Source: Macrostomum lignano
Taxonomy: Eukaryota
Assembly (NCBI GenBank): GCA_002269645.1
Contig: NIVC01002126.1
Span: forward strand, 30,316-94,315
Length of the DNA: 64,000 nucleotides
Direction: 5' to 3'
Below, one piece after another: positions 14,951 to 63,422 of this stretch. The stretch's first letter is position 1, and every line of letters starts with the position of its first letter. The notes below the pieces were generated by a model. The model saw only the letters and a program-made list of their open reading frames with translations. It searched no databases and was not told the DNA's origin. The position numbers and the translations under genes were made by a program.

Positions 14951-15414
14951 CTCAAGGACCACTAGAAGTTACCCCGAAATATACCCTGAAATAATTCCTT
15001 ATAATATGTAGCGTTTATAAATTTGAAGCGTTAAATCCTCTTAGGTTTAGTAAAAAAAATTATCAGGCGGCAGGCTGTGTTGAAGGTACCATTTGCTGCA
15101 TTCCTCACCCATCAGCCCCCCCCCCCTACCAGCCCTCACGTCGCAATGATGAAAGCGCCATATGCGGACGCAGAATCCAAATGCATTTCACACTTAACAG
15201 TGTACTCGTAATATTGACCAGAAATGGGTATTAAGGGTTTAAGGGACACAGATGGTTGGCGATAGGGCGAACTGCAAATGGAAGACGATCCGACAGTTAA
15301 AAGGTTCATTTTAAAAAAAAGTTGTTTCCGCCTGTGGCCTCGGATTTTATGGTGGTTGGGTAAAAACCCTAGAATCTTAACCGAAATATTCCTATGATTG
15401 GGAATCTGTTAACA

Positions 15415-16045
15415 CCGATTTTGGCACCACAAGCGCTTATTTTGGCGCCACAGACATTCATTTTGGCGCCACAGACACTTATTTTGGCGCCACAGACATT
15501 CATTTTGGCGCCACAGACACTCATTTTGGCGCCACAGACACTCATTTTGGCGCCGTAGACACTCGTTTTGGCGCCGCAGGCACTCATTTTGGCGCCACAG
15601 ACACTCATTTTGGCGCCGCAGGCACTCATTTTGGCGCCACAGACACTCATTTTGGCGCGGTAGACACTCATTTTGGCGCCATAGACACTCATTTTGGCGC
15701 CACAGACACTCATTTTGGCGCCACAGACACTCATTTTGGCGCCGCAGGCACTCATTTTGGCGCCACAGACACTCATTTTGGCGCCACAGACACTCATTTT
15801 GGCGCCACAGACACTCATTTTGGCGCCATAGACACTCATTTTGGCGCCGCAGGCACTCATTTTGGCGCCATAGACACTCATTTTGGCGCCACAGACACTC
15901 ATTTTGGCGCCACAGACACTCATTTTGGCGCCGTAGACACTCGTTATGGCGCTGCAGGCACTCATTTTAGCGCCGCAGGCACTTATTTTGGCGCCGCAGG
16001 CACTCATTTTGGCGCCACAGACACTCATTTTGGCGCCGCAGACAC
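15415..16045. repeat. 21-bp minisatellite (TTTTGGCGCCACAGACACTCA)
   Basis: Visible array; reverse complement of the array at 16760-17140. Confidence 0.95.
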
Positions 16046-16759
16046 CAATTTTGCGCTAACGAATTTACGACGTAGAGATTTTGTTCCGGAGATCACTAAG
16101 AAACAGATGACTGCCTAGATATTTAGTTTCTTAGAAAAAATGCTTTTGAATAAATAACTGAAAGAAGATGCTGCAGCACTTCGACAAAAGTTTTATTATT
16201 TTTCAGGGGTATCAATGAAACTATAGTAGCCAAAAATAGGTTGACTTGCATCCCCTAGAGAACTCAGTCGGGTAAAAACCCTACCGTACTATCTGCTGTA
16301 AGCCAGATCAGCTTATGTAAGTATATGCATAAATAGTTTTTTTCGTGGGATTCTGTTCTCCATCTAATTAATGTAGAGAGGAATTGATGGATATTAGCTA
16401 ATACGAAATCATTTGCCGTCAGACAAGTCATTCAAAAGTTCATATGGAACTTTTTTTCTTTTTTAGAAGTAGAAGGTCACTTTCAAAATGCTAATCAAGA
16501 ATTGTAGTTTGACACAGGCGACTTGACACAATGCTTATAGCGACACGGTCCCACAACCTGGGCTGAGGTGATTCTGCCCATTCCGCACACTCCTGAGCCA
16601 TGCAAGCGTGTCAATACTGTACGCAGGCGCGAACTCATGCACACGCTCAGGGGCGTCCCCACCGGTGTGGACAGCGGGGACGTGTGTCCCCCCCAGTAAA
16701 GGCTTTGGGGGGGGACATGCCAATCTGCTTCAGTGTGACAAAAAATAGCGCGTGCAGCA

Positions 16760-17140
16760 CCAAAATGAGTGCCTGCGGCGCTAAAATGAGTGCCTGCGGC
16801 GCTAAAATGAGTGCCTGCGGCGCTAAAATGAGTGCCTGCGGCGCCAAAATGAGTGCCTGCGGCGCCAAAATGAGTGCCTGCGGCGCTAAAATGAGTGCCT
16901 GCGGCGCTAAAATGAGTGCCTGCGGCGCCAAAATGAGTGCCTGCGGCGCCAAAATGAGTGCCTGCGGCGCCAAAATGAGTGCCTGCGGCGCTAAAATGAG
17001 TGCCTGCGGCGCTAAAATGAGTGCCTGCGGCGCTAAAATGAGTGCCTGCGGCGCCAAAATGAGTGCCTACAGCGCTAAAATGGTGCCTGCGGCGCTAAAA
17101 TGGTGCCTGCGGCGCTAAAATGATTGCCTGCGGCGCCAAA
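16760..17140. repeat. 21-bp minisatellite, inverted relative to 15415-16045
   Basis: AAAATGAGTGCCTGCGGCGCY repeated. Confidence 0.95.
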
Positions 17141-45400: not shown

Positions 45401-47763
45401 ATACTTACACTACTGTAAAAGTATAGCTGCTATAAAACTATAGCACAATACTGCAATAATTATTTGTAGTAGGGCAACAAAAATGACCCACACAAAATAA
45501 AAGTCTCCTAAAATATTCTACTCATTGTGACATCTATCAAAAAAACTTATCTCCAAACATACTTCTGATGAGTCAGAATCAATATCTGAAATTTGGCCTT
45601 CAAAATTTTCTGCAAATTGTGAGTATAACATCTTGATATACTGCTAATCCTTGTTTTATAAAAGGTTTTTGCTTATTCACTTAAATTTTGGATACGATAA
45701 TGATAAAAAATACAATGTAGCATCTTTATGTATGTCGCACACTTATATGCCTGCTTAGGGGAGTTGGTGGAATGGGCAGTAATGCCTCTCGCTAGTTGTG
45801 TGCCTATGTTGCTTAAAGTGTGCCAAGGTGCACACAACCCCCTGCCTCTAAAAAATAAATCTTTATTTGAGGAAAAAAAGCATGTTTAACTTTAGACCAA
45901 CATATTTTTTTGTTTTTTTTTCACAAAGACATGTTTAAGAACTTTTTAATTGGCAATTCTTTAAAATTAGAAAGACTAATAATGGAAGTACCAAAACTTA
46001 CTTTTTTTAAAAAGTAGGCCTACCACAATATCCGAACAAGTGCTAGAAGTTACTTTTCTTGGAACCAGAAGTTACTTAACCAGAAGTTTCTACACTGATT
46101 ATAAGGGCCTAAATTAGGCCTATCTACCATCCTAATTAGCTTGGCTTAATTTGGCTATAGGCCTACATCTAGAGATATAGGCATAATAACTATTTTTAGC
46201 ATATGCTCTATTCTAATTAAATAGAAATCTAAATCTTTACAATGGAATCAAAGGGACTATTAGTATCATTGATATAGGCCTATGATTGCAATAGCAATTG
46301 ATATTGCTAGGCCTAGGCATATTATGATACATTATATAAGCTTCTAGCAAATGTTAAAATTCAAAAATAAAATTGCTAGTATAGCAATACTTTGGCTTAA
46401 GGCTTATTAGTGGAACAAATCATTAATTAAATGATGAAAAACTTTGAATGAAATAGGCCTAATTTGGCCTAGGCTTACTAAATCAGATTTAAATAAAAAC
46501 AATTGGATGCATTCAAATTTGGCAACAAACAAATTTAACAATAAACAAATTTGGCAATAAACAAATTTGGCAACAAACAAATTTGGCAATAAAAAGTTAA
46601 CATAGACCAATTTGGCAAAAGCAAATAATTAGGCAACAATCTAATCAAATTCTACAATATATATTTTTATAATTAAAGTCAAAACAAGTTAAAGCAAATT
46701 ACATGTAATAAAAGCTTTCTTAAAATGCTTATGAAAGTTTATAATATGAAATAATGGCTGTATAAGCATGTTAAAATAACTGAAAAATGCATAATAGAAT
46801 AGGGGCCACTTGATACTTTTAAATTTTGTCATTTTTTGCATGGCATATTTTTGCAAATCCCTTTTCCCAACATTGTATTGTAACCAATAGAAGGACATTA
46901 TTAGGCATATAAGAAAATCATTTATGTATGTATTCAATAGGCCTATGCATTGAAGAATAACATTGTACTAAAGGAATTATCCAAATTAGTCCTATATACA
47001 ATTGAATTGTTTTTCCTTTATTAATTTTCACCAAATTTGCCTAGATGGTTGCTGAATTTTACCAAATTTCTTGTTGCCAAATTGGTCAGCACTCAGCACC
47101 CAAAGAATCATTGGGCCTAGCCTAGGCCAGGGATGGCCAATGGGTAGGCTCACTTGGCATGCTATGCCATATAGCCAAGCTATGCACTTAATATTTTAAT
47201 AGTGATTATTTAAATTTAACAATATGATGTTTAATTTAATTATATCAACAGTGTAGTTTCAATAATAAATTTCAATATTTTAATAGGCCTAGCAGAGAAT
47301 TTACAATATCAAGACATCAAGTCACAACTTCACAAGCAGTTTGCAGTAGTTGTAGGCCAATACTATTATATGCCCTACACTGATGAACTAATATATAATC
47401 ATACTCGTAATATTGTTTTGATTTCATCATTTTAGACAATAATGGATGATAGACTATTGAGTCATGAAAATGCAGTGAGTGGGTGGGTGTGTGTTACTAA
47501 TACGACTGTACATTTACCATTTCGTGTCAGTTAATTTAAATGTGACAGCCATTCATTCATAGAAACATAGAGAATCATCGTACGATGTTTTTTCCGTTTT
47601 TTATTTTACACTTCTATAAATATACTAAATCTCTAAGGTTTGTATGTCCATAACGCTCTAGAGATTGCAATTCTTGACCAATTTAAATTACTAAATTTAA
47701 TACTACAGTATATACAGCCTATTGAGCTGTACACAGTGGCTATGTATATCCCAATGGAAATAC

Positions 47764-48461
47764 CAAGGACGACTTAAGTAGAAGGACGGGAAACCTCGTT
47801 TCTTAGAAATTTTTTGAAGGCACTTTTTCCCGAAAAAATACACTGCGGAGATAGGAAATTTTCATTTTTTCAGCACAAAAATTGCTATAACTTTTGATAG
47901 GAGGCAGATCCAGTGTTGATCTTTTGATATGTTGTGCCTTTTTTATTGCTCTATCGATATTTATAAAGCTTTCCGTTCAGAAAATTAGGATTCTATGTTA
48001 ATTTTTTATTCTACGTATATTTTCATGTGTCTTGTGCTTGAAATACATTAGAATGCCACGGCTTGGCTCTTTGATTTTATGAGTCTATTTTATCCTTCTT
48101 ACCTGACTGTATAGCAAATAGTCGTAACATAGATGATAAAATAGATTCATAAAACCAAATATTAGAGCTGTGTCATGCATTTTTGTGATTTTTAGATACA
48201 GGAAATATACGTAGAATAAAAAATTAACATAGAATCCTAATTTTCTGAACGGAAAGCTTTATAAATATCGATAGAGCAATAAAAAAGGCACAACATATCA
48301 AAAGATCAACACTGGATCTGCCTCCTATCAAAAGTTATAGCAATTTTTGTGCTGAAAAAATGAAAATTTCCTATCTCCGCAGTGTATTTTTTCGGGAAAA
48401 AGTGCCTTCAAAAATTTTCTAAGAAACGAGGTTTCCCGTCCTTCTACTTAAGTCGTCCTTG
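47764..48461. mobile_element. Foldback-type MITE (698 bp, ~255-bp near-perfect inverted arms), hAT- or P-like
   Basis: Ends CAAGGACGACTTAAGTAG / CTACTTAAGTCGTCCTTG; 8-bp TSD GGAAATAC at 47756-47763 and 48462-48469. Confidence 0.92.
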
Positions 48462-48808
48462 GGAAATACATGTACATGTACTGCAGCTGTACGAGCTACA
48501 TATTTGTATTTTGAACATATTAGCTACGCGAAATAGGTATTAATTAATTATTCTTTGCTATTTCATGAAATAATCATAATCATTTAAATAATCATGAAAT
48601 AAATATTGCGTTTCATGAAGAGGGATGACAATTTAACAAGTTACAAGTGATAAGTGACAATTTGTCAAGCCGTTTTTGCCGTTCTTTTGGCCATAGACAA
48701 CACAGATTTAGTTTGAGCACTATCGAAGGTTCCCACTTGTCAATGACAAGTCTACAAGTGGCCTAAGCTCTTGTCAACAGTCTACTTAGATAGAGAAACA
48801 AAAACATA

Positions 48809-51172: not shown

Positions 51173-52111
51173 ATGTTGTCTGCAGTAAATCTGCTTCCGT
51201 TGTTTATTTGTTTAAATTCTGCTTGGCCTCAGGCCCGAACAGAGTCATGCTTTGAAGTTCAGAAGCTCAACGGTTGCGCTGATTGCTTGAAGAGCTTAGC
51301 AAACAAGACGGCCATACCGAGAAATGCCTGTTGGATAGCAAAGCTGCAAAATGAGTTCGAATCGAAAATGATTTGGCGCGCCAGTCAAGTTCTTCTGAAC
51401 GGCAGCTCAGGCGAGTGCCACCTACTGAGCAGCGAGTGCCCGCTAAAGTGCCTGCCATCGTCGTCCGATGGACTTTTGGAGTCCTGGCTTCCGTGTCGGG
51501 CACCAGATGCCCCGGTAGTGTCGCATCTGATCTTCACCATCAAAGCTGAAGTTGGCCGCAAGGCCTACAACTCTTTCGTCACAGCATCTGGCAATGAGCA
51601 CGTCCTAACGGTTGAGAGCGAGAGCTCAACTGCTGGACTGCCGGATGTGTTCCGCTCGGATCTTCTGGACAATTTGGACGAACTGAAAAACTTTCTAACC
51701 ATGAAAGAGTTTCGCGTAATCGTGTACAAATCAAACGTTCCCGTTATTCGATTGACGTTTGACGTATCCAAGCCGGGACTCACGGCGCAGAGTTGGTTCG
51801 CCCTCGATTGCCTCAAATCGAGCTGGCCTGTAGATGGCCTCGCTAACAGGACTGTCAACTATTTCTCCGTAGCTGGTCACGTGTCTACCGTCATAGGATG
51901 GAGTCACGAGCGCAGGTTTTTCATCAACTACAACTACGGCGGTTGCCCTTCTGACAATGGACTGCTAATGATAATGGATACCGATGATGTCTGCCCATTT
52001 TCTAAGGAAAACTTCACTGCCGCGCCGAGGATTTTGTTCACGAATAGCTCGACTGGTCACTGGAATACGGACGTTCAGAAGGCCGACAGGCTGTCTATCT
52101 TTGCTGTCTAA
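51173..52111 (+). CDS. Intronless secreted protein, 312 aa, unknown function
   Basis: Signal-peptide-like N-terminus, Cys-containing N-terminal half, and C-terminal WF...SSW...FSVAG...RRFFINYNYGGCPSDNG...AD pattern recalled from uncharacterised invertebrate secreted proteins; lies outside the Polinton TSD. Confidence 0.8.
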   Translation: MLSAVNLLPLFICLNSAWPQARTESCFEVQKLNGCADCLKSLANKTAIPRNACWIAKLQNEFESKMIWRASQVLLNGSSGECHLLSSECPLKCLPSSSDGLLESWLPCRAPDAPVVSHLIFTIKAEVGRKAYNSFVTASGNEHVLTVESESSTAGLPDVFRSDLLDNLDELKNFLTMKEFRVIVYKSNVPVIRLTFDVSKPGLTAQSWFALDCLKSSWPVDGLANRTVNYFSVAGHVSTVIGWSHERRFFINYNYGGCPSDNGLLMIMDTDDVCPFSKENFTAAPRILFTNSSTGHWNTDVQKADRLSIFAV

Positions 52112-52175
52112 CTGACTACTCCGCACTGAATGTCTCTGCAGCTTGCTAGACGCTAGTGAACGCTAAGTAGAGAGA

Positions 52176-52470
52176 AGTAGTAGGAAAGTGGTACCCTCTA
52201 CCGCCATCGCACCGGATTGGCCGGGGCACCCGGCCAATGAGGGGAGAGGGCCCCCAAAAGACGCCCACCCCGACCCCACCACCGCCACGCACCCACCCCC
52301 GACCCCACCACCGCCACGCACCCACCCCCGACCCAAACCGGGCCCCCCAAAGACGCCCACCCCCGACCCCAAACCCACGCACCTACCTCCGACCCCAAAC
52401 CGGGCCCCCTCCTATCCATCCCATACCAAGGCCCCTTCCTGTCCAGCACACCATCCCATACCGGAGGCCG
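52176..52470 (+). repeat. Left terminal inverted repeat of the Polinton
   Basis: Reverse complement of ~62835-63310; AGTAGT terminus; inner boundary approximate. Confidence 0.92.
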
Positions 52471-52689
52471 GAGAAGGGGGTCGGGCAAGCCCAGGTTGGG
52501 GTCGGGCAAGCCGGTCGGGCAGGCCAGATGAGGGGTCGGGCAGCCGAGTGTCTGGTTGAGTGTCCAAGGGTGGGTATCGAGATGTGAATGAGTGTCCATT
52601 GGCGAGTGTCCTCCTACCGCGTGTGGTGACACGCAGCACAGAGTTTCAATGTGATCCGATAGAGGGTCTGATTGCTTGGAATTTTCGAG

Positions 52690-52840
52690 TAGAGAGGGGA
52701 TTCTATTGGTCGAGAAAGCATTTGAAGTGATTTCCGAGTAAAATGTGGAGAAGGGATTCTATTGGTCGATAGGTCCCTGGTGAACGATTTGGTTTGGACC
52801 CTGCGTGAGAAGGGCTCCAGTACACTTTATAAATAAAGCA
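52690..52840 (+). promoter_or_regulatory. Candidate polB promoter
   Basis: Duplicated GGGATTCTATTGGTCGA (inverted CCAAT) near 52697 and 52755; TATAAATA at 52828; ATG at 52896. Confidence 0.4.
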
Positions 52841-52895
52841 CCTCGGTCCTATAGATTTTTTATTTATTTTAGATTAAATTAAAAATACAACGAAA

Positions 52896-53656
52896 ATGCA
52901 AATAACTTGCGACTTTTGCGAGTCATCAGTAATCGGGGGCATTGAGAAGCACTATGCGGTATGCCCTGCGATACCAGCACTGTTTGAGTCAGATGACTAC
53001 CCAACGATTCATTTTCAACTGATTAAGGAGGCGTTTAATGGCAGGTCCCGACTTTACCGGGCCAGTGCATGCGGAGACCCGAGGAATGTGTTGGAAAGCA
53101 CTCGTCAAGCTTTCATTGACTTAATCACCCAGCATCAACGTGAGCCAGGAACCGCCATCAAGGTTCAGCTGCGCCTCGGAGTCCTGATGCAGCGCATCAT
53201 TAATGGCCGCTGCGCCGCCGAGAACACCGCCTGGTTTGCTGCCAAGGTCCACTCTCTTATTCGGAGTGAGGAGGAGCAATACTTCTCTGACGATATACAG
53301 ACTATCCTCAACCGGATAGAGAAGTACCTACGCAATGGCAGTGGCTGGGTAATCAGGACCACTCGGTGTGTTGACGTGTCGACCGCTGTTTATTATCTAC
53401 CGCATGGAGCGTCGTGCAAAAGGCCAAGAATGAGTTCAAGAAAGACAACGGGCTGCTAAACAACTCCCTGTAGACCCTAGAGAATGTTCGCAAGAAAGTG
53501 AGCTACCGACTGGTCAATTCAAAGCCTGTGGCCAAGTCAGCGTTCCGCGACCAGAAGATTTTCAACGGGGATTTAGTTCTGGTGCACGTTCTCAAGATGA
53601 CAAGCCAGTGTCGGCCAGTGCGATCTGGACACTAGCAAGCTCTTTTTTTCACAATA
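52896..53656 (+). pseudogene. Protein-primed family B DNA polymerase, internally deleted
   Basis: N-terminal region ending IEKYLRNGSGWVI, then an out-of-frame piece KAKNEFKKDNGLLNNSL*TLENVRKKVSYRLV...KIFNGDLVLVHVLK and VGQCDLDTSKL resembling the polymerase motif-B region; exonuclease and most of the palm are missing. Confidence 0.82.
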
Positions 53657-54641
53657 ACATTCTTTCCACATATATTTAATTTTTAACTATATGCATGTAA
53701 ATTTAATACGAACATAATATAGTCTGAATAATAATAAATACATGCTTTGCCATATTCAATATTTGGTACACTGCAGGAGAGAAAATGTTCTTTCACATTA
53801 ATATTTTTACCATAATGAGTCATTTTTTGTGCACATCTCTGGGTTAAAATTCTCATTGAAATGTATGTGTTTTATGCACAAGTATGCAAGTTTTCGTGCA
53901 CAGTGTTAAAAAGTATGCAAAGTGTCGAGGTTTTTCGTGCACACATTCGGGTAAAAATTCCCATTGAAATACATGTATTTTATGCAAAAATGCATGATTT
54001 TTCGTGCACAACAGAGGCTAGAAACGCTAAATCCGCAGAAACTGGTGGGGGTGGGCAGTTTTTTTTCAAGCCAGGTGTTTGGCATAAGAAAATGATAGGT
54101 ACTAGAAATTCGGTAAAATGAAAACGAAAAAGGCAATTTCCAACCTTCCGCCAGGTATTTAGATCTGCATACTACAAAGTTTATAGAATTTTTTAATAAT
54201 AATGAACACCTTTTTTACTCTATATGTAAGCTGCAGTGGCGAAAAATGCTCTTTTTCTTAAATATTTTGCCATAATGAGTCATTTTTGTGCACAGGTCCG
54301 GGTTAAAATCCCCACTGAAATACATGTGTTTTATGCACAAGTATGCAAGTTTTCGTGCACAGTGATTAAAAGTATGCAATACGGCGTGAATTTTTCGACA
54401 AAATGCGTCTACTTTCATGCACAGGTTCGGGTACAAATTCCCATTGAAATGTATGTATTTTGTGCAAACATGCATGCTTTTTCGCGCACAACAGAGGCTA
54501 GAAACGCTAAATCCGCAGAAATGGGTGGGGGTGGGTAGTTTTTTTTTTCAAGCCGGGTGTTTGGCATAAGAAAATGATAGGTACTAGAAATTTGGTAAAA
54601 TGAAAAAGAAAAAGGCAATTTCAAACCTTCTGCCAGGTATT
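53657..54641. repeat. AT-rich insertion with a diverged ~460-480-bp tandem duplication between polB and the integrase
   Basis: CATAATGAGTCATTTTT...CCAGGTATTTA occurs at ~53810-54161 and ~54270-54643. Confidence 0.8.
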
Positions 54642-55817
54642 TATTTTGACTGCAGGAGGCCGGGCAGCTATGGCGGCTATCAGGCATTAAAACGAGAGTT
54701 GCACAAACATCACGGACCCAAGTTTAGTGTAGGGCAGGTATGTATATACGATATACTTCTAAACCAATGATTTTTTAGAAAATTCCAGCTTAGGTTTTTA
54801 GTTTTATCCACTAGCTAGCAATTTCCAGTTTTTACAATTAAAGGTAAAAACGTGGCTCCAAGACCAAGATGTCTACGCACTGCATAGAGATAAACGCAAA
54901 AACTTTCGTCGAGCACCGATTGTGGTGCGGGGCATGGATGACCAGTGGGAACTGGACCTGGTTGAAATGCTACCGTTTGCTAAGTACAATGGCGGCGTAC
55001 GATATATTTTATGCTGCATTGATGTGCTCAGCAAGTTTGCCTGGGCTCAGCCGGTGCGCCGCAAGACAGCCGAGGAGGTTGCAGCCGGATTCGAAGCGAT
55101 CCTAAATCGAGCTCACCCTCGATGCCCACGAGCAGTTCGGACCGACCGTGGAAAAGAGTTTTGTAACACCCAGTTCCGAGCCCTCTGCGTAAACCACAAA
55201 ATTCATGCATTCACATCAAGTAGTGACCAGAAATGCGCAGTCATTGAGAGATGGAACCGCACACTGAAATCCCGAATGTGGCGGTACTTCCGTCACAAGT
55301 CAACATTAACCTGGACCGATGTGCTTCAACCCTTAGCAAAGGCATACAACCAGAGTATTCATCGGAGTATTCAAAGCCGACCAGTTGATGTCGACAAGTC
55401 AAACGAGATGGAAATTTGGCACCGGCTTTACGATGGGAAGCTTCCTGAGACTCGTGAAAAGGTCTCCAGACCAAAGTTCAAGGCAGGAATGATGGTGCGA
55501 ATCTCTCTTCGCAATCTGGCCAACCCATTCACCAAGGGATACACAAGGGGATGGAGTGAGGAAGTATTTGAAGTCAAGTCCCTCCACCCCAAGCATTATC
55601 CATACATGTACACTCTGATCGATGCCCGAGGTGAAGAGTTGGAAGGCAAGTTTTACGAGCCGGAAATGCAGCAAGTGACAGGAAACAAGAAGCTGTGGAT
55701 CATCGACAAGGTTCTCAACATTAAGAAGCTGAAGAGTGGAAAGATTCGGTATTTGGTTCAGTGGCGCGATTCAGAAAACCCAGTTGGATTGACGAAAAAG
55801 ACTTAAGAAAAATATGA
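54642..55817 (+). CDS. Retroviral-type DDE integrase with C-terminal chromodomain; one intron; start lost; chromodomain frameshifted
   Basis: YFDCRRPGSYGG...GQ (to 54737), intron 54738-54843, then VKTWLQDQDVYALH...QWELDL...RTDRGKEF...IERWNRTLK (D, D, E intact). Chromodomain WIIDKVL...YLVQW continues in another frame as PSWIDEKDLRKI*, with the stop overlapping the next ATG. Confidence 0.93.
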
Positions 55818-56592
55818 AAAGGCAAAGATTTCAGGTAATGTCCGGCCCCGATGATGACCCGGCCAACTTTACTGCTGAGCTGCTGCATCCTGTGCTGCTG
55901 GATTCTGCTTTGGACTATGAGTTGGGTCTGCTTGGAATCAGTTTTATCAACTGCATCTACACGATCCCTCATCCATTGTCGCTATATTATCAGCTTGAGG
56001 GTTCAATGCAATGTGCTGAAATTCCAGCTGGGCGCTACAATGACTTGAATGAGCTGATTGATGCAGTAAATACTACTGATTGTAAAGATTTTGATGAGTC
56101 TGGAATTGGCGAAACACCTATAAATGTGCATCTAATTAAATTTACCCTTGATTCAGTTAGCCATCATGTATACTATCAAATGGCTGGGATCTGTGGGAGA
56201 TTTATGTTTCCAGAAAACAGCCAGATGGGGAAAATCTTTGGTGCTGCGCAGACAACCTATAGCGAGCAGGCAGGTTGCTTTGAACGACCTGGCATGAACC
56301 CGGCCTGGAATACAGATTTGCTGCTTGTTGAGTGCGATCAGATTAGCCCGCGCTGTATTGGAAATCAGTTTACTCCAGCACTGCAGACTTTGAATATTGG
56401 TGGTCTTTTGCAGGTCACCGGTCGGAACTCATCTATAAGAATAAGCTGTTCTTCCCAATAGCAGCAAACCACCGCTTAACACACATGCAAATACGGCTAC
56501 GACCGATCAACTGTATCGAATCTATCCGATTACTCTTTGGACCCACAGTCTTGACTTTTGAGCTGCGTGAGTCATGGACATTCGACAAGTGA
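55814..56592 (+). CDS. Minor capsid protein (penton, single jelly-roll) with one frameshift near 56430
   Basis: NFTAELLHPVLL...YELGLLGI N-terminus; shifted C-terminus KLFFPIAANHRLTHMQIRL...FGPTVLTFELR; typical position after INT. Confidence 0.75.
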
Positions 56593-56837
56593 CCGAGTTT
56601 TATCGAGGCAGTTGCTTCAAACTTCCTCATGGACACGGATATCCCACATCGCTGCTATCTCGACTGCCCCCTGAGACTCATGAAAATGCAGTTCTCCTTT
56701 CCCGCATACCACCTCCATCGCAGAAAAAACATAAGAAAACGCCAAAAATCAAACCAAAGAAGAGCAAGCCAGTGCCCACAAAAAAGCGCAAGATACCGTT
56801 AAAAACAGTCAACCGAGTGCTCGATTCACTCTCATAA
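56574..56837 (+). CDS. Small basic putative core / DNA-condensing protein
   Basis: FYRGS...HGHG N-terminus and a Lys-rich C-terminal half; located between mCP and MCP. Confidence 0.55.
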   Translation: MDIRQVTEFYRGSCFKLPHGHGYPTSLLSRLPPETHENAVLLSRIPPPSQKKHKKTPKIKPKKSKPVPTKKRKIPLKTVNRVLDSLS

Positions 56838-58106
56838 TGTATCGGACAAATCCACGGCTCAACTGTTTGAGCCAATGACGCATGAAATTGGAGTGGATAG
56901 GTCTCACTTCATGGACTTTCATCCCATCGGCAGTCTCACGACTCCTGATGCACCGATTGAATTCGACTGCCATGCCTCCTCTGAGGACTACACCGATCTG
57001 CACGCCACAGTGCTGCAAGTCACTTGCCGGATAACTCGTGTGATAAACAATGCAGAGCTGACTAATGAAGATGATGCCCATGTCGGACTATCGAATCTCC
57101 CGCTTGCCAGCCTGTTTCGTGATGTCACTGTAAAACTCAACCAGCGGGTTGTGAGTGGTGGGGACCAGCTCTACCCATATCGAGCAATGCTTCAAGTGCT
57201 GACCAGCAGCAATGCCAACCAGCTTCAAGAACTGGCGGCCGCAGGTTATTATCCAGACACCGCTGGAGAGAGTGACACCATTGGGGAGCAAAATCATGGA
57301 TTCACAAATCGTGCGAGATTGCATGAGGCTTCTGCTGTTGTGCAATATGCCGGCCCGTTGTTTTCAGACATTTTCTCAATCCGGCAGTATCTGCTAAACC
57401 AAATCAGCCTGCAGGTCAAATTGACCCGGCATTGCAGCGCTTTTTCGTTGATGGTACCCAATAATGGAGTTCAATACCGTGTTGAAGTCGACAATGCTAT
57501 TCTGCTTTTGAGGCGTCTCCGAGTAAACCCAACAGTGGCTCTCGCACATGAACAGGGGCTCTCACAGCGTAATGCTCTCTACCACTTTGATAGAAGAGAG
57601 CTTCAGACATTCACATTTTCTGTTGGGACAAGAAACAAGAGTCTCGATTCAATCACGCATGGTCAGCTGCCAAAATTTGTGCTCCTTGGAATGGTCAGCC
57701 AGACTGCTTTCAATGGATCTCTGCACCACAACCCGTTTTGGTTCCAAGCATTTGGGTTGAATAGTTTAAGCCTGTTTGTCAATGGAGAGCCAATTACTGG
57801 GCAGCCCATAGAACCACAGCAGCAGCCTCATCCGAATTTTTGCAGTTTGCCCGCAGTCTCAGTGGAAAATATTGCATAAGCTTTGATGAATTTCGAAATA
57901 GTGCCTATCTGCTTGCGTTTGACCTTAGTCCAAGTGGCGATGAAGTAGGCAGCTGGTTTGGTCATAGGCAGGGTCAACTACGACTGGATATTCGCTTTTC
58001 CAACGCTCTCGCACAGCCAGTCACACTCATCTGCTTGTGCGTGTATGATTCATGCATGGAAATCACTAAAGAGAGGGATGTGCTGCTGGATTATCGCAGA
58101 GCATGA
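56837..58106 (+). CDS. Major capsid protein (hexon, double jelly-roll); frameshifts at the start and near 57830
   Basis: PIEFDC...DYTDLHATVLQV, NLPLASLFRDVTVKLN, YPYRAMLQVL, GQLPKFVLLGMV; C-terminus in the next frame AYLLAFDLSP...GQLRLDIRF...EITKERDVLLDY (ORFs 56875-57879 and 57840-58106). Confidence 0.9.
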
Positions 58107-58575
58107 ATTCCGAAGAGTTGGAAGCGTTCATTTCTCGCTGCCCCACATCTGTGCGGGATGCCTATTGCGGAAATTTTACAGTTGGAACAGTGACACCATT
58201 TTTCGATTCAACCTGCCGACCCTGCTGCTTCATTTTGTATGAGCCATGGAATGATGAGTGCGGTCACTGGATTGCTGGAGTAGTAACCAGTAAAGTGCAT
58301 TGTGAAATTTTCAACTCTTTGGGAGGCTTGAGTAAAAATATGAAGAGCTGGTTAAAGAAAACTAAACCGACGCGGATGGTGCTACAATGGAATACGGTCC
58401 CTGTTCAGCCCAGTTCGTCAACTCTTGCGGCTGGTATTGCATTTTTTACTTGATCCATCGACTGCATAAGAGAATGTCATATAATGCCTTGTTCATCAAG
58501 GTTTTGCACCCGGCAGCTGTGGCTCAAAACGATGCAATCATACTCAGACTCAAAAATCAGTTGCAAGGTGTTTGA
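58103..58575 (+). CDS. Adenain-like cysteine maturation protease, frameshifted just before the catalytic Cys
   Basis: GHWIA, FNSLG (Asp position reads Asn), VQPSSS then -CGWYCIFYL in the shifted frame, NDAII. Confidence 0.85.
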
Positions 58576-59191
58576 TTCCAGACTGCGGATGGGAGGCTGC
58601 ATGATGGTTTCGGGCCCTTCTCGAGCGGGAAAATCAACATTCTGTTTGCGGTTGCTGTCCCAACGACTGCTTCTGTTCGACCAACCTCCCAAGCGGATGA
58701 TTTGGTATCACGGATGCCCGCAGCCGGAACTCCACGCGACTCTGCGGCGGCTAGGAGTGCAAGTATGTGAAGGATTATCGAATTTGGATCTGCAGCCCCA
58801 TGACCTGATTGTGATTGACGATTTACTGGATGAAGCAGCTGCAAGTCGAGAGCTACGACATCTGTTCACCCGTGAGGCCCACCACAAGCCCTGCTTTGTC
58901 ATTCTCATCACGCAAAATCTATTTTTCAAAGGCAGAGAGTGGCGCACAATTAGCATAAATTGCACCTACATTGTGTTGTTCAACAACCCCAGAGACGCCT
59001 CTGCGGTCCAAGCTTTAAGTCAGCAATGCTTTCCCAAACGGCGCACTCTGCTAGTAGAACTGATGGATCGATTGGTGCGAGATGGAGATCAGCGCTATCT
59101 GCTGCTTGATTTTCACCCCGCTTCGCCCCATGAACTGCGCCTGAGAGCCAATTTTCTCCCCGATGAGGCCCCGCAGCGAGTTTATCTATAA
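58532..59191 (+). CDS. A32/FtsK-like genome-packaging ATPase
   Basis: FDSRL...Walker A GPSRAGKS, Walker B LIVIDDL, HH...VILITQNLF, RTISINCTYIVLFNNPRD; ORF intact; the start could be GTG at 58568. Confidence 0.95.
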   Translation: MQSYSDSKISCKVFDSRLRMGGCMMVSGPSRAGKSTFCLRLLSQRLLLFDQPPKRMIWYHGCPQPELHATLRRLGVQVCEGLSNLDLQPHDLIVIDDLLDEAAASRELRHLFTREAHHKPCFVILITQNLFFKGREWRTISINCTYIVLFNNPRDASAVQALSQQCFPKRRTLLVELMDRLVRDGDQRYLLLDFHPASPHELRLRANFLPDEAPQRVYL

Positions 59192-59221
59192 GAATGGCTC
59201 AGTCTCTGCACTGAGTTAAAC

Positions 59222-59552
59222 ATGGATAAACACATTGCACTAATAACTGTCTTTTGTGAGGGCACTATATCCTTGCGTCGCTGCATACTTACCTATGCAA
59301 ATAAAAGCACCATTTGCTTTTTGGTCGAGTGTATTATCAACTTACTAGCAGGAAAAGTTGTGTGAAGATAGCTTGAAGCGGAGACTCAGGCGATATCGAA
59401 ATACTCTCCGGCTTGTTGCACAAAGCAAAAGTGTGAAAGAGGCTCGGCGCAATCTCTCACACCCGCATATCCTTCGTTGTCTTCCTCTGATTCTCACCTG
59501 TATAAAAAGACATGTACAAGGAAATGATACTGGTACCCCGGTTGCAGTATGA
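59222..59552 (+). CDS. Conserved small Polinton protein (PW-like), frameshift near 59360
   Basis: MDKHIALI...RRCILTYANKSTICFLVECIINLLAGKV, then LKRRLRRYRNTLRLVA...LRCLPLIL in another frame. Confidence 0.65.
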
Positions 59553-60108
59553 GGCACTTGTGAATCAGAGGGGCATGGAGACAGTCTGTGAACCCGAGCT
59601 AGAGGCGGAAAAACAGTTGCGCAAGATTAGGGACGAGCGTTGCGTGCAGCAGCTGCAGGCAAGTGCGACCCAAGAACAGCCTCCAGTAATTCACAAAGAA
59701 CCGCAGTGGAAGGAGGTTTTATATCTGACGGTGAATCAGAAATGGCATCATCGTCTGCAGGCATTGATTAGCTTCATAACCGTAAAGTGCAAGTCGATTA
59801 GCATAGATGATACGTATGAAGTTTCTGTCAATGGTAAACCGTTGTACAACTCAAATATCGTGGACCTGCTGCATTTCATAGTTAAAGATACGTACTCTAA
59901 GTACCTTCAGCCACCGAATGGGATTAATGAGTTTGTTACGTGTCTTCAAGAAAACCACGTGCCTCTGTCTGCAGTTGGTCTGAACACTACAAAATTGCTG
60001 GAAAAGCCTCGGGAAGAAAAGTCCAGTCCTAAAAAACCTCGACTGCAAGGCTATAAGAAGACTCAGTCTCAGAAAGGATACGGCAAGTGGATCAAGTGGC
60101 CAAGATGA
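59512..60108 (+). CDS. Conserved Polinton protein (PZ-like)
   Basis: MYKEMILVP N-terminus; EVSVNGKPLYNSNIVDLL and PNGINEFVTCLQENHVP motifs; ORF intact. Confidence 0.75.
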   Translation: MYKEMILVPRLQYEALVNQRGMETVCEPELEAEKQLRKIRDERCVQQLQASATQEQPPVIHKEPQWKEVLYLTVNQKWHHRLQALISFITVKCKSISIDDTYEVSVNGKPLYNSNIVDLLHFIVKDTYSKYLQPPNGINEFVTCLQENHVPLSAVGLNTTKLLEKPREEKSSPKKPRLQGYKKTQSQKGYGKWIKWPR

Positions 60109-60986
60109 TTGTCATTGATTTTGAAGGATTTCCGCACCTCTACAAAACAGAGGACTTTGTGATTAAGGAAATTGCATGGGTTGAGTTTGCATGCGGTCAA
60201 ACGACGGCTCATTACTATTGCTACCGACCGCCGCACAGCTTTGAGCTCTTTGATCGAGGACAGCGACGAACCTGCTACTGGCTCACCAATAAGCGGCACG
60301 GTCTAGACTGGGACAGGAGTGGGTTCCGACCCTACTCTTGTCTCTGGAGCGATATCTCTCACTTGCAAGGCCCGATATTTAGCAAGGGGGATGTCAAGTG
60401 CCAGTTCCTGTCGCGTCTGCTGCTGCAGCCTGTCTACGACCTCGCACACCTAGCCTTTCCGAGTGCCTCAAAGTACGTGCTACCCTGCGCCCTGGCCAAG
60501 GTGGCGCTGTACGCTGATTGGCTGCGGCCTCGCGGCTACGGGTCTATAAAAGTAGCGATCTGCAGCAGGCACTGGCGTTTCTCTCGATTGTCTAAAGATG
60601 GTCGCAACAATTCGCGTGACAAACATCGTGACAGGAGCCGACCTGGCGACCCGGGTGGGTCTGCCTCAACTAGTGAATTTCCTGACTCTTCATCTGCCTC
60701 AGTATCACACAATCCGCCATCGCCTGGTTCATCCTCGAACACTGGCAGTGGTGATGAAGAGCGGGCAGCATCGAGTAACCGCGCTGGTGTATCCGACCGG
60801 ACAAGTGTCTGTCTGTGGAGCCAAAAGCATGGAGGAAGCTCTCGCAGAGACGGAGAAGATTGTGAAGCTGTGTGCGGACTTCTTGCGATTGACCAGTCTG
60901 CCCCAGATTCGCATCAAGACTATTACCTCTGTGACGGCCTTTCCCGCGGGTCGGCATCCACTCCGGTTGGGGGAAGTCAAGTCTAA
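60105..60986 (+). CDS. DEDD/DnaQ-like 3'-5' exonuclease-fold protein (homologous part ~60105-60600)
   Basis: IVIDFEGF (ExoI), VIKEIA, PP...WLTNKRHGLDW, KG..K..FL, CALAKV; ATGA overlap with the PZ stop; the C-terminal extension overlaps TBP. Confidence 0.7.
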   Translation: MIVIDFEGFPHLYKTEDFVIKEIAWVEFACGQTTAHYYCYRPPHSFELFDRGQRRTCYWLTNKRHGLDWDRSGFRPYSCLWSDISHLQGPIFSKGDVKCQFLSRLLLQPVYDLAHLAFPSASKYVLPCALAKVALYADWLRPRGYGSIKVAICSRHWRFSRLSKDGRNNSRDKHRDRSRPGDPGGSASTSEFPDSSSASVSHNPPSPGSSSNTGSGDEERAASSNRAGVSDRTSVCLWSQKHGGSSRRDGEDCEAVCGLLAIDQSAPDSHQDYYLCDGLSRGSASTPVGGSQV

Positions 60987-61197
60987 ATGGCCGCATCGGG
61001 CCACCTATGAGCCGGAAATGTTTAACGGACTTGTGCTCGAGTTTACTGCCTCTGTAAAGTTGATTTTGTTTCATTCGTATCGTTGTATAATAGCTGGTGC
61101 TCGCAGCGTGGTTGAGGCTCAGACTGCAGCTGATGCCCTCTCCCGCATTTTGCTACCAGATCAAGCATCCGAACCTACTTTGCTGGACTCTGACTGA
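60598..61197 (+). CDS. TATA-binding protein (TBP)-like protein, 199 aa
   Basis: Both TBP repeats align with the recalled yeast core: TNIVT, LAVVMK, TALVYPTGQVSVCGAKS, PLRL, TYEPEMFNGL, LILFHS, IAGAR; no N-terminal extension; no introns. Confidence 0.9.
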   Translation: MVATIRVTNIVTGADLATRVGLPQLVNFLTLHLPQYHTIRHRLVHPRTLAVVMKSGQHRVTALVYPTGQVSVCGAKSMEEALAETEKIVKLCADFLRLTSLPQIRIKTITSVTAFPAGRHPLRLGEVKSKWPHRATYEPEMFNGLVLEFTASVKLILFHSYRCIIAGARSVVEAQTAADALSRILLPDQASEPTLLDSD

Positions 61198-61199
61198 GC

Positions 61200-61610
61200 T
61201 CCTCTACGGCATAACAGTAGTAGTGAGATCTGCCTATGCACCGAGTAATAATAATAATAATAATAATAATATTTTTGCTGTAACTTTACTTCTGTATTTT
61301 TTTGTGTACAAAAGATAAGAAAAAATAAACGCGAATGCGACAATAGTGTTTGTACAACAATGCTTACGAAAATGAAATGTTTTTTTTGTTTATTTTATTG
61401 GCAGGTCCATGGATTGCAAAGCATAAAATTACATGTTAAAAGCTCGTATTAGCACAAAAAAAGTTTATGAAGAATGGAAGGGCAGTATTAAGGCCCGTCG
61501 TGTATTTACAAAACAGTATTATCGCAAGAAATTAAAGCATCATGGGGCAATATTATAGCCAGTGTTGACAAAGCAATATATACAACAGTGCATGATCAGT
61601 ACTATGGTTC
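61200..61610. terminator. AT-rich convergent polyadenylation region
   Basis: AATAAA on + near 61324 and on - (TTTATT) near 61388-61399, between convergent ORFs; (AAT)n tract near 61247-61270. Confidence 0.45.
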
Positions 61611-61614
61611 AAAA

Positions 61615-61962
61615 CTATATTAAAAAAAAGTTATTGACGAAATGACCAGTTGTCGCTTCATGCATTGCGCGTCGCTTCATTGGTGGCTGGTGGAATGAAG
61701 GCTGTTGGTTCTTCTCAGCTGTTGGTGGCTCTTCCAGAGTTTCGAATGTAAATCTCTTTCTAAATTCAGCCTGAACTGCTTGGAAGGCCCCCCAGTGGTC
61801 GTCCCAATCTGCCGACTGCCTGTCAGGTACTTGCATCAGTTGGTCGAGCGTAAGCCTTGCTGCCCATGCTGAACACTTCAGATTCCGTAGGGTGGTATCC
61901 CATGGATCGCCGATCGGTGGCTCGACCGGAGGCTCTCGCTTGTCATTTTGTCTAGGACCCAT
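61615..61962 (-). CDS. Hypothetical protein, ~115 aa
   Basis: ATG at 61962 within ORF 61615-62175; no recognisable motif. Confidence 0.3.
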   Translation of the reverse strand: MGPRQNDKREPPVEPPIGDPWDTTLRNLKCSAWAARLTLDQLMQVPDRQSADWDDHWGAFQAVQAEFRKRFTFETLEEPPTAEKNQQPSFHQPPMKRRAMHEATTGHFVNNFFLI

Positions 61963-62324
61963 TGCTTTTGAGCCCAGACTTCGCGCCAAAGTGTAGTAGG
62001 AAGCGGTAAGGCGTGCCTTAGGTGCACCGGCGGTCCGAGTACAGTTGGAAGGCGCCAGAGTGTGATTACGCCATTTTGCACAACCACTTGCCTGTTGCCA
62101 CCCAGAAGGCATTGCGCATCGATACACTTTCTTGCAAACTCTTCCAGTCGTTCCTTCAGGCTGCCCAAGTGGCAAAACTGGTGGACGGTGAGCTCCATGC
62201 CAGGCAGACCTGGTCGATACTCTTCATCAAATTTGTACCACTTTCTGATGCTGATGCACTTCGAGTGCGACCTGACGCCGATTCGAAATCTGTTCGATAA
62301 TGTCTTGAAGTTCATTTTGTTCAC
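61878..62324 (-). CDS. PC4/Sub1-like ssDNA-binding protein with two tandem PC4-type repeats
   Basis: LSNRFRIGV...ISIRKWY...YRPGLPGMELTVHQFCHL matches the PC4 pattern R.V.V..F.G...IDIRE.Y....KPG.KGISL..EQW..L; weaker second repeat LGGNRQVVV...ITLWR...LPLPTTLWREV; ATG probably at 62315. Confidence 0.72.
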   Translation of the reverse strand: MNKMNFKTLSNRFRIGVRSHSKCISIRKWYKFDEEYRPGLPGMELTVHQFCHLGSLKERLEEFARKCIDAQCLLGGNRQVVVQNGVITLWRLPTVLGPPVHLRHALPLPTTLWREVWAQKQWVLDKMTSESLRSSHRSAIHGIPPYGI

Positions 62325-62834
62325 TGTGAGCTTTCCTTCCGGCTGTGTGCGAGATTATATACGACGAGAGTTGGTAAGTAACACCAGCTCCCGCTCCATA
62401 GCAATAACCAATCCGAACCCCGAATCCAACCCCACACAACAGCCCTCTCGCAGGAACTCTCGGCAAATCAGGAGCCCTTCCGGGGACCACTCAGCCATTT
62501 AGAAACCAGCTCCTGTTCCATAGCAATAACTAATCCGAACCCCAAATCCAACCCCCACACAGCAGCCCTTTCGCAGGAACTCGGGCCTTAACAAAGTCTC
62601 AGCCATCAACGTAACAGGAGGTGGCGGGACCTTCTTGCGGCCCTCTGGCCGCCAAGAAGTAGCGTTCTAGGTCTAACGACCTCACGCTGTACCCGCCACA
62701 GCAAGATACAGTACAACCAAAGCATGGAATGAGGGTTTTGCCTTGGCTAGCTTTAAAGGCGGTAAGTGAGACAGGTAATAAGACTTGGGTTTAGGAATTA
62801 GGAGGGGGAATTGGTTTTGGTTAGGGTACAGGAT

Positions 62835-63310
62835 AGAAGGACCTTGCTACATGGGATGGGCAAGGCGTAGGATAGGAGGGGGCCTTGGTATGGGATGCAT
62901 GGGGTGCAGGACAGGAGGGGGTCTTGGTATGGGATGCACGGGGTGCAGGACAGGAGGGGTGTAGGACAGGCAGGGGGTCTTGGTATGGGATGCATGGGGT
63001 GCAGGACAGGAGGGGTCTTGGTATGGGATGCACGGGGTGCAGGACAGGAGGGGGTCTTGGTATGGGATGCACGGGGTGCAGGACAGGAGGGGTGTAGGAC
63101 AGGAGGGGGCCTGGTTTGGGGTCGGGGTGGGTGCGTGGGTTTGGGGTCGGGATTGGGTGCGTGGCGGTGGTGGGTTTGGGGTCGGGGTGGGTTTGGGGGT
63201 CGGGGTGGGTTTGGCGTCGGGTGGGCGTCTTCGGGCGCCCTCTCCCCTCATTGGCCGGGTGCCCCGGCCAATCCGTGCGATGGCGGTAGAGGGTACCACT
63301 TTCCTACTAT
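62835..63310 (-). repeat. Right terminal inverted repeat of the Polinton, with expanded subterminal repeats
   Basis: Reverse complement of the left TIR; extra GGTATGGGATGCAYGGGGTGCAGGACAGGAGGGG units; terminus CCTACTAT (one base short of CCTACTACT). Confidence 0.92.
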
Positions 63311-63422
63311 GAGAGAGAATTGAGAACTTCTACTACACTTTTATTCCGACTTTTTGCTGTTCTAAATTCTCCTTTTTTTAAAGAACTTACACTTGTAAAT
63401 TAAAAGCTGTGGATTACATGTA

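Follow-up and report, generated by a model that had tools for sequence, protein, structure and literature searches.

Does a Polinton encode its own TATA-binding protein (TBP), and if it does, to what use would such a protein be put? The question is raised by a stretch of 64,000 nucleotides from Macrostomum lignano (hereafter the window), in which a sequence-only reading had reported a TBP open reading frame (ORF) within a Polinton/adintovirus and had suggested that the protein could redirect host RNA polymerase II (Pol II), or Pol III, to element promoters, or act as a decoy. Here we describe the element, its relatives in the same genome, and a promoter-like box that precedes many of their genes. 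We propose that the element's viral TBP has an altered DNA specificity and guides host Pol II to the late genes, in a manner resembling ORF24 and the TATT box of herpesviruses, a reading built on predicted binding to which we assign a probability of roughly 0.6.

How Polinton capsid genes are switched on, and how far the elements depend on helpers, are questions for which an own TBP and an 8-base box give a direct handle. If the proposed reading is true, no smaller viral take-over of Pol II initiation would be known. It would run parallel to herpesvirus late promoters, one protein standing in the place of six, and would supply a natural series of TBP variants that have changed in specificity.

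Structure and gene content of the element

The Polinton that holds the TBP ORF spans positions 52176-63310 of the window (11.1 kb), and the features discussed below are summarized in Table 1. Its inverted ends are identical at 78 of 81 positions at the tips and at 236 of 304 over approximately 290 bases. As in other Polinton/Maverick elements (adintoviruses), we find terminal inverted repeats with AGTAGT ends, a 6-bp target-site duplication, an rve integrase, a protein-primed PolB (a remnant in the window and a whole 1152-aa gene in the related group B), an adenain-type protease (Peptidase_C5 in group B) and a putative packaging ATPase of the P-loop type. It differs from them by the addition of TBP, a PC4-domain protein, and either a nuclease-like ORF (groups A and B) or a nucleoside kinase (groups C and D). 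The order on the plus strand is PolB remnant, AT-rich repeats, integrase, putative minor capsid, small ORF, putative major capsid, protease, ATPase, small ORF, 198-aa ORF, nuclease-like ORF and TBP; the PC4-domain gene occupies the minus strand of the same element. The two capsid labels are our assumption from gene order and size, and double or single jelly-roll capsid proteins gave no Pfam, PHROGs, NCBIfam or PDB sequence match.

Table 1. Features of the TBP-bearing Polinton, in positions of the window
Feature	Positions	Strand	Remarks
Left target-site duplication	52170..52175	.	GAGAGA, 6 bp
Left terminal inverted repeat	52176..52462	+	starts AGTAGT; other copies begin to match from the same base
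Ordinary TATA box TATAAATA	52828..52835	+	68 bases before PolB remnant
N-terminal remnant of protein-primed PolB, 187 aa	52896..53459	+	remaining gene absent; 52% to L060 PolB N-terminus, E 1e-57
Retroviral-type integrase (rve, chromo)	54934..55806	+	homology from ~54844
Box CTTAAGAA	55802..55809	+	before putative minor capsid gene
Putative minor capsid protein	55814..56461	+	shorter frame than in group B; no library match
Box TATAAGAA	56434..56441	+	
Box CATAAGAA	56730..56737	+	145 bases before putative major capsid ATG
Putative major capsid protein, 334 aa	56875..57879	+	other groups 427-441 aa; no library match
Cysteine protease	58103..58453	+	truncated here; group-B homologue resembles adenovirus endoprotease
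Box CATAAGAG	58465..58472	+	before ATPase
P-loop ATPase, putative packaging ATPase	58484..59191	+	
Box TATAAGAA	59187..59194	+	TAA is the ATPase stop; before small broken ORF at ~59222
Conserved 198-aa ORF	59512..60108	+	28% to group-B ORF230
Box TATAAGAA	60052..60059	+	53 bases before DEDD-like ORF
Nuclease-like (DEDD-like) ORF	60105..60986	+	IDFEG start; weak Maelstrom look-alike, 0.88
Ordinary TATA box TATAAAAG	60545..60552	+	53 bases before TBP ATG
Element-encoded TBP, 199 aa, two repeats	60598..61197	+	open from ATG to TGA
PC4-domain gene (ssDNA-binding / coactivator family)	61878..62315	-	in group B too
Right terminal inverted repeat	63020..63310	-	
Right target-site duplication	63311..63316	.	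GAGAGA, 6 bp

The window copy is damaged outside the TBP gene: PolB comprises only 187 codons, and the capsid, protease and integrase frames are cut short. Decay or misassembly thus affects several genes, with TBP whole. The PolB of the related copy L060, to which the remnant aligns, matches the full PolB of group-B copy L031 (Pfam DNA_pol_B_2). AT-rich internal duplications (53650-54850) occupy the place of most of PolB in the window. This PolB-poor layout is common to many group-A copies, L060 retaining a longer, broken PolB, so that group A looks largely non-autonomous. Within the same region, a 106-base stretch with GT...AG borders (54738-54843) stops exactly where integrase homology starts and is possibly an intron; the piece 5' of it, considered as an upstream integrase exon, gave no BLAST match. 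The PC4-domain gene, together with an ordinary TATA box, is common to groups A and B (150 scored matches; L106 1330-2058), and its product could be the single-strand binding protein of PolB or a coactivator for the element TBP.

Identity and fold of the element TBP

Pfam PF00352 (TBP) matched two stretches of the 199-aa ORF (E 5.6e-19), with a score of 68 bits where the cut-off is 22.9, and all 35 sequences matched in a PDB sequence search were TBP or contained TBP. An AlphaFold2 model (pLDDT 87.8) aligned with solved TBPs from Sulfolobus and human at TM 0.72 (E 1e-12; 183-197 columns), with a predicted saddle fold across the whole length. The HMM, database and structural evidence thus agree with the sequence-only reading in identifying an intact two-repeat TBP inside the inverted repeats and target-site duplication.

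The TBP ORF overlaps the upstream ORF by 389 bases. In groups A and B alike, the nuclease-like frame runs on without a stop over the first 323-389 bases of the TBP gene, with an identical frame offset in both groups (L031 8379-8710), an open overlap longer than in synonymous shuffles (P 0.0002-0.022). In some copies the nuclease-like ORF and TBP read as fusions, and in group D the TBP frame likewise continues into the kinase gene. The nuclease-like ORF itself (60105-60600) has many arthropod look-alikes.

Distribution, selection and ancestry

Searching the same genome with the window TBP gave at least 150 scored matches among 202 candidates, comprising 45 rows at 70-100% identity (group A, to which the window copy belongs; some rows are pieces of one copy), 104 rows at 35-40% (group B), and one further row at 47%. 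An open frame from Met to stop was present in 15 of the 30 group-A loci fetched. Group B displays the same order from integrase to TBP, with the PC4 gene in front and the whole 1152-aa pPolB facing the TBP gene, and exists in many identical copies. Two further groups, C and D, whose capsid protein is 35% identical to that of the window, have a TBP as well, much more divergent and located upstream of PolB, where it adjoins or is fused with the nucleoside kinase; in group C, the fusion with a deoxynucleoside kinase is in frame. Matches to this C/D-type TBP numbered 72 among 86 candidates (31-100% identity). The group-D protein is modelled with pLDDT 91 and TM 0.71 to the TBP fold, and C/D TBP aligns with the A/B profile at a probability of 97.

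No ATG is present at the start of the C/D-type gene (L113 5768-6334, minus strand; L114; L115-L123). In 8 of 8 copies it begins directly after a pyrimidine-rich CAG, a splice-acceptor sequence, and is therefore probably spliced to an upstream exon. Given this start, together with scores near or below the Pfam cut-off, such genes have probably been missed in annotations.

Each of the four Polinton groups read in this genome accordingly has a TBP. Among contigs with a group C/D-level capsid match, 11 of 18 also had a TBP match, and on 9 of those 11 it lay on the strand of the capsid gene, 11-14 kb upstream. Judged by these copies, TBP is a long-standing Polinton gene, and the element-encoded, asymmetric TBP described by the sequence-only reading for one element proves to be more widespread than had been claimed.

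As that reading had suggested, selection was assessed from substitution ratios, with dN/dS far below 1. Across nine group-B representatives, dN/dS was 0.06-0.27 in repeat 1 (36 of 36 pairs) and 0.05-0.34 in repeat 2 (the 21 unsaturated among 36 pairs), while the 12 intact group-A copies gave a pN/pS of 0.40 (P 0.002), a value biased downward since only intact copies were included. These ratios indicate that the element TBP is under purifying selection.

Host TBP and TRF2 are separate genes, and the window TBP is 21% identical to host TBP. Groups A and B form one supported clade (95-97). Topology tests, which took in 51 of 153 rows (the larger tree being a quick version), rejected a sister relationship of A/B TBP to host TBP (p-AU 0.014), did not reject one of A/B to host TRF2 (p-AU 0.10), and neither rejected nor demonstrated a single origin of all element TBPs (p-AU 0.36). 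The phylogenetic comparison proposed earlier thus separates the protein from host TBP; a grouping with TRF2 was neither recovered nor rejected.

A public M. lignano protein is identical to group-B TBP at 189 of 190 positions. Further relatives (P0002, P0003 and P0153 at ~60%; P0005), as well as B-like ones (P0006, P0113, P0154, P0156, P0157), lie on contigs of at most 3 kb. Viral contigs scanned with A/B TBP, C/D TBP, PolB and capsid contained no relative, and a protein search for C/D-type TBP yielded 0 of 2275 candidates. Forty metagenome loci (19-40% identity) were set aside as other TBPs, a Polinton hallmark gene being found in 0 of 40.

Among group-B copies (TBP genes of L031, L035, L037, L040 and L048; L101-L105), those in which TBP repeat 1 is near-identical (dS 0.07-0.09) are saturated in repeat 2 (dS >1), and PolB is only 46-50% identical in three of the four cases read. 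By this pattern, the TBP gene of group B is a recurring recombination junction just past the repeat boundary.

Residues of the DNA-facing surface

Residue numbers are those we take to apply in yeast TBP, transferred via host TBP. In TBP, the 5' half of the TATA box is read by repeat 2, which also binds TFIIB, and the 3' half by repeat 1. The window TBP retains F190, F207, E186, E188 and N69; F116 is replaced by Tyr, N159 by Thr, P191 by Asn and SGK by SYR, several Val are Ser or Thr, and there is a 7-residue insertion after helix 1. Two of the four intercalating Phe and one of the two Asn of canonical TBP are therefore present, and P191 is absent. The acidic C-terminal stirrup for TFIIB (E186, E188) can be recognised in the alignment. 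The sequence-only reading had correctly listed the retained second-repeat Phe residues as well as the changes at 116, 159 and SGK and the insertion; its account of the first-repeat F99 is less secure, as the multiple alignment places Pro (H-P-R-T-L) at this position whereas a pairwise alignment places Thr, and the disagreement leaves the register uncertain.

Across 15 of 15 element TBPs, E188, F190 and F207 are invariant, F116Y, V122S/T, N159T/S and V161T/S are shared, and F99 is absent; E186 and N69 are retained in groups A and B only, P191 in C and D only. As predicted from these alignments, the DNA-facing surface of element TBPs is rebuilt, more polar and asymmetric.

In comparison with cellular TBPs (PF00352; eukaryotic TBP, TRF2 and archaeal TBP), the element protein shares the two-repeat saddle of approximately 190 aa and, in group A, F190, F207, E186/E188 and N69, but it lacks the N-terminal tail. 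The four intercalating positions of host TRF2 are Tyr, Arg, His and Phe, a pattern different from that of the window TBP.

A promoter-like box at gene starts

Reading 5' of gene starts revealed the pattern [CT][AT]TAAGA[AG], summarized as the 8-base box YWTAAGAA. This pattern was chosen by eye after looking; an unbiased 7-mer ranking was run besides. The coding strand holds 6 sites in the window block and 7, 8 and 8 in three group-B blocks, the opposite strand holds none, and shuffles average 0.7-1.2 per A/B block (maximum of 4 in 200). All 29 of 29 A/B sites lie within 160 bases of a gene start, and the box precedes 6 of 9, 7 of 10, 8 of 10 and 8 of 10 genes in the four blocks. In the unbiased ranking, TTAAGAA is the top 7-mer in every B block (corrected P 3e-7 to 4e-9); by itself, the ranking does not reach significance in A (0.084), C (1.9) or D (0.17). 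Between two B blocks that are 70% identical, 7 of 7 box sites are retained, compared with 21% of 6-base windows that are identical. The box as mere stop-codon context was rejected, only 5 of 38 sites being upstream stop codons.

Most boxes lie 39-59 bases 5' of the ATG (range from box to first ATG 7-149), and the shortest distances would be compatible with a TATA role only where translation begins at a later Met. No initiator signal was found at a fixed distance 3' of the box, and no box precedes the putative major capsid gene of L106 or the protease gene in any block read. Two extra sites (54083 and 54565) fall in the AT-rich duplication, outside the tested block.

Groups C and D had been chosen as TBP-less controls and were found to carry TBP further upstream, so that the control of box against TBP-less elements failed. 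They lack the A/B box; instead, TATAAG[CT] occurs at 4 and 5 sites (shuffles 0.4-0.5), with none on the opposite strand and 7 of 9 near starts, which is weaker evidence than in A/B. The full C/D form is TATAAG[CT]A. TAAG is thus the core common to the boxes of all four groups, with group-specific flanks, and the common feature is a G at box position 6, in the half that would be read by the altered repeat 1.

If the first base is allowed to vary, C opens 16 of the 26 near-start sites in A/B; in C/D, T opens 10 of 11 and C opens none. The TBP proline P191 is described as favouring T at box position 1 (PMC12529657, consulted in part). Loss of P191 (A/B) goes with C-starting boxes and its retention (C/D) with T, in what amounts to one two-lineage contrast.

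The commonest A/B box, CTTAAGAA, departs from the TATA consensus at three positions, and several sites are TATAAGAA, one base off consensus. Ordinary TATA boxes showed no enrichment in the blocks tested. Individual examples precede the PolB remnant, the PC4 gene (TATATAAT at 62361) and TBP itself; that before TBP (TATAAAAG) is retained in 26 of the 27 group-A loci holding that stretch, and in group B the TBP gene is itself behind the special box. The sequence-only reading had named TATAAATA at 52828 as a promoter on which to study binding. The motif is present, and, being an ordinary TATA box, is probably an early promoter for host TBP; YWTAAGAA appears the better target.

A proposed early-to-late programme and its alternatives

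In the proposed mechanism, host TBP and Pol II would first read the ordinary TATA boxes before PolB, PC4 and the group-A TBP gene. Element TBP would then bind YWTAAGAA (TATAAG[CT]A in C/D) before the integrase, the capsid genes and the protease-ATPase block, and its retained acidic stirrup would recruit host TFIIB and hence host Pol II. The outcome would be a simple early-to-late programme of the vTBP/TATT kind run by a true two-repeat TBP. A search for the TFIIB family gave 15 matches on 7 contigs and no element TFIIB; one (L129) is a split host gene whose core is interrupted by an intron. Nuclear Pol II transcription is suggested by the splice-acceptor sequence that 8 of 8 C/D-type copies have ahead of the first TBP strand. 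Contigs from four sequencing runs over 52800-62800 cover coding and non-coding parts alike and are uninformative on level, strand and starts. The predicted redirection of Pol II suggested by the sequence-only reading has thus gained indirect support from a matching promoter-like box and retained TFIIB-contact residues; nothing found favours its Pol III alternative.

The boxes might instead be weak TATA elements read by host TBP, with element TBP as a general stand-in or booster that has no specificity of its own, for instance where TBP is scarce in the cell or as an escape from Mot1/NC2/TAF1 control. PDB titles record wild-type TBP crystallised on the single TATA variants G(-26) and T(-30), in which position 6 is G or position 2 is T, so that host TBP may read TATAAGAA, the sequence of several sites and a single base from consensus. 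The commonest A/B box is, however, off at three positions, the blocks are not enriched in ordinary TATA, the minor-groove surface is polar in 15 of 15 sequences, and P191 tracks the first base; we consider this reading unlikely.

The altered repeat-1 Phe residues (F99 lost, F116 Tyr), the loss of N159 and the retained stirrup would also suit a decoy for host TFIIB, TFIIA, TAFs or regulators, with something else reading the box. This possibility, raised by the sequence-only reading, has become less likely because conservation is highest among residues that face DNA: these account for most of the columns without variation (F190, F207, Y at 116, the KT/ST strand), whereas the outer helices vary most. 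A decoy moreover needs no matching box, and we regard it as rather improbable.

Baculovirus and nudivirus late promoters use TAAG, and virophages and some PLVs use helper-virus promoters. The TAAG core could be a late promoter read by the RNA polymerase that a large DNA virus brings in on co-infection, with TBP serving another purpose or that helper's machinery. The core is common to all four groups, the reliance of virophages and some PLVs on helper promoters offers a precedent, and the short box-ATG distances suit initiation inside TAAG. Yet no helper is known for the Polintons studied here, the core flanks are group-specific and follow the TBP residue, and the splice-acceptor sequences speak against a cytoplasmic helper, though not against a nuclear one; dependence on a helper polymerase is, in our estimation, a similarly poor prospect to the decoy.

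A TBP fold turned to origin binding, packaging or integration would accommodate the exchange of group-B repeat 2 together with the downstream PolB type, and the position of the C/D gene beside nucleoside kinase and PolB, but TFIIB-contact residues are retained and the box is tied to gene starts, making a non-transcriptional role very improbable. A processed copy of host TBP or TRF2, for which a single-exon ORF and the A/B-TRF2 p-AU of 0.10 could be cited, is scarcely credible. Sisterhood with host TBP is rejected (p-AU 0.014), identity to it is 21%, the gene has hundreds of matches in a constant place in the gene order, and dN/dS is far below 1; a copy that is recent, as a near-identical one in a single element would be, or functionless is thereby refuted.

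If the preferred reading, element TBP directing host Pol II to its own box, is extended, it would take in a broad and overlooked set of animal Polintons with an own TBP and a co-evolving promoter code, in which changes of TBP residues pair with the 8-base box; such elements would hold a self-contained early-to-late programme on host Pol II within 12-20 kb. Group-specific boxes could bar cross-activation of capsid genes between co-resident Polinton groups, and TBP repeats would be swapped as modules by recombination. We would hold this wider picture about as readily as doubt it.

Relationship to known viral TBPs

The closest functional parallel is found in beta- and gammaherpesviruses, whose vTBP (KSHV ORF24) acts at TATTWAA late promoters. 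According to the parts of PMC12529657 consulted, ORF24 is large and multi-domain, binds Pol II directly, needs five partners, and lacks the acidic residues that contact TFIIB. Common to both systems are a viral TBP-like protein with a more polar DNA surface, an off-consensus TATA-like box before structural genes, and the use of host Pol II, which for Polintons is presumed. In contrast to ORF24, BcRF1 and UL87, the Polinton protein is a bare 199-aa TBP core with the TFIIB acidic residues kept, and no partner complex was found in Polintons. By analogy, then, Polinton TBP may work like herpesvirus vTBP but is no member of that family.

Nucleocytoviricota mostly encode their own RNA polymerase and TFIIB, none of which was seen in the Polintons here. 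Their TBP homologues (BFVD matches) also have a divergent viral TBP fold, at TM 0.5-0.7 and 8-18% identity.

Element TBP is not the first of its kind, as 'TBP' is labelled in the legend of Fig. 5 of Starrett et al. 2021 (PMC8502044; bioRxiv 10.1101/697771), for MELD viruses with an adintovirus-like PolB. Like our element, these are linear DNA viruses of Polinton size with a TBP-like gene; they differ in that, in the parts of that source available, the gene is a legend label belonging to the section on non-animal datasets, which gives no analysis or promoter link, and a term search of the accessible supplement returned 0 TBP matches. Term searches of the accessible text of PMC11071296, PMC11161782, PMC11131425, 10.64898/2026.06.19.733378 and 10.64898/2026.10.13.758929 returned neither TBP nor TATA. 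A literature search of partly accessible sources, with subscription journals and Repbase outside its scope, found no paper in which the TBP or a promoter box of Polintons is analysed. The novelty supposed by the sequence-only reading is thus reduced by the Fig. 5 label; within the papers searched, a viral TBP with its own late box is known from herpesviruses and hardly described for Polintons.

Other features of the window and of related copies

In a group-C copy (L109/L110; C297), a retrotransposon pol-like ORF lies directly 3' of the protease gene, and in group D a dUTPase-like ORF (a by-eye label) precedes the ATPase. Outside the element, a 312-aa ORF (51173-52111) with a signal-peptide-like start and no Pfam match ends 65 bases before the Polinton and is probably a host gene. 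The window further contains inverted tandem-repeat arrays and a 269-base inverted repeat of 98% identity (15400-17082, 47754-48471), unrelated to the element.
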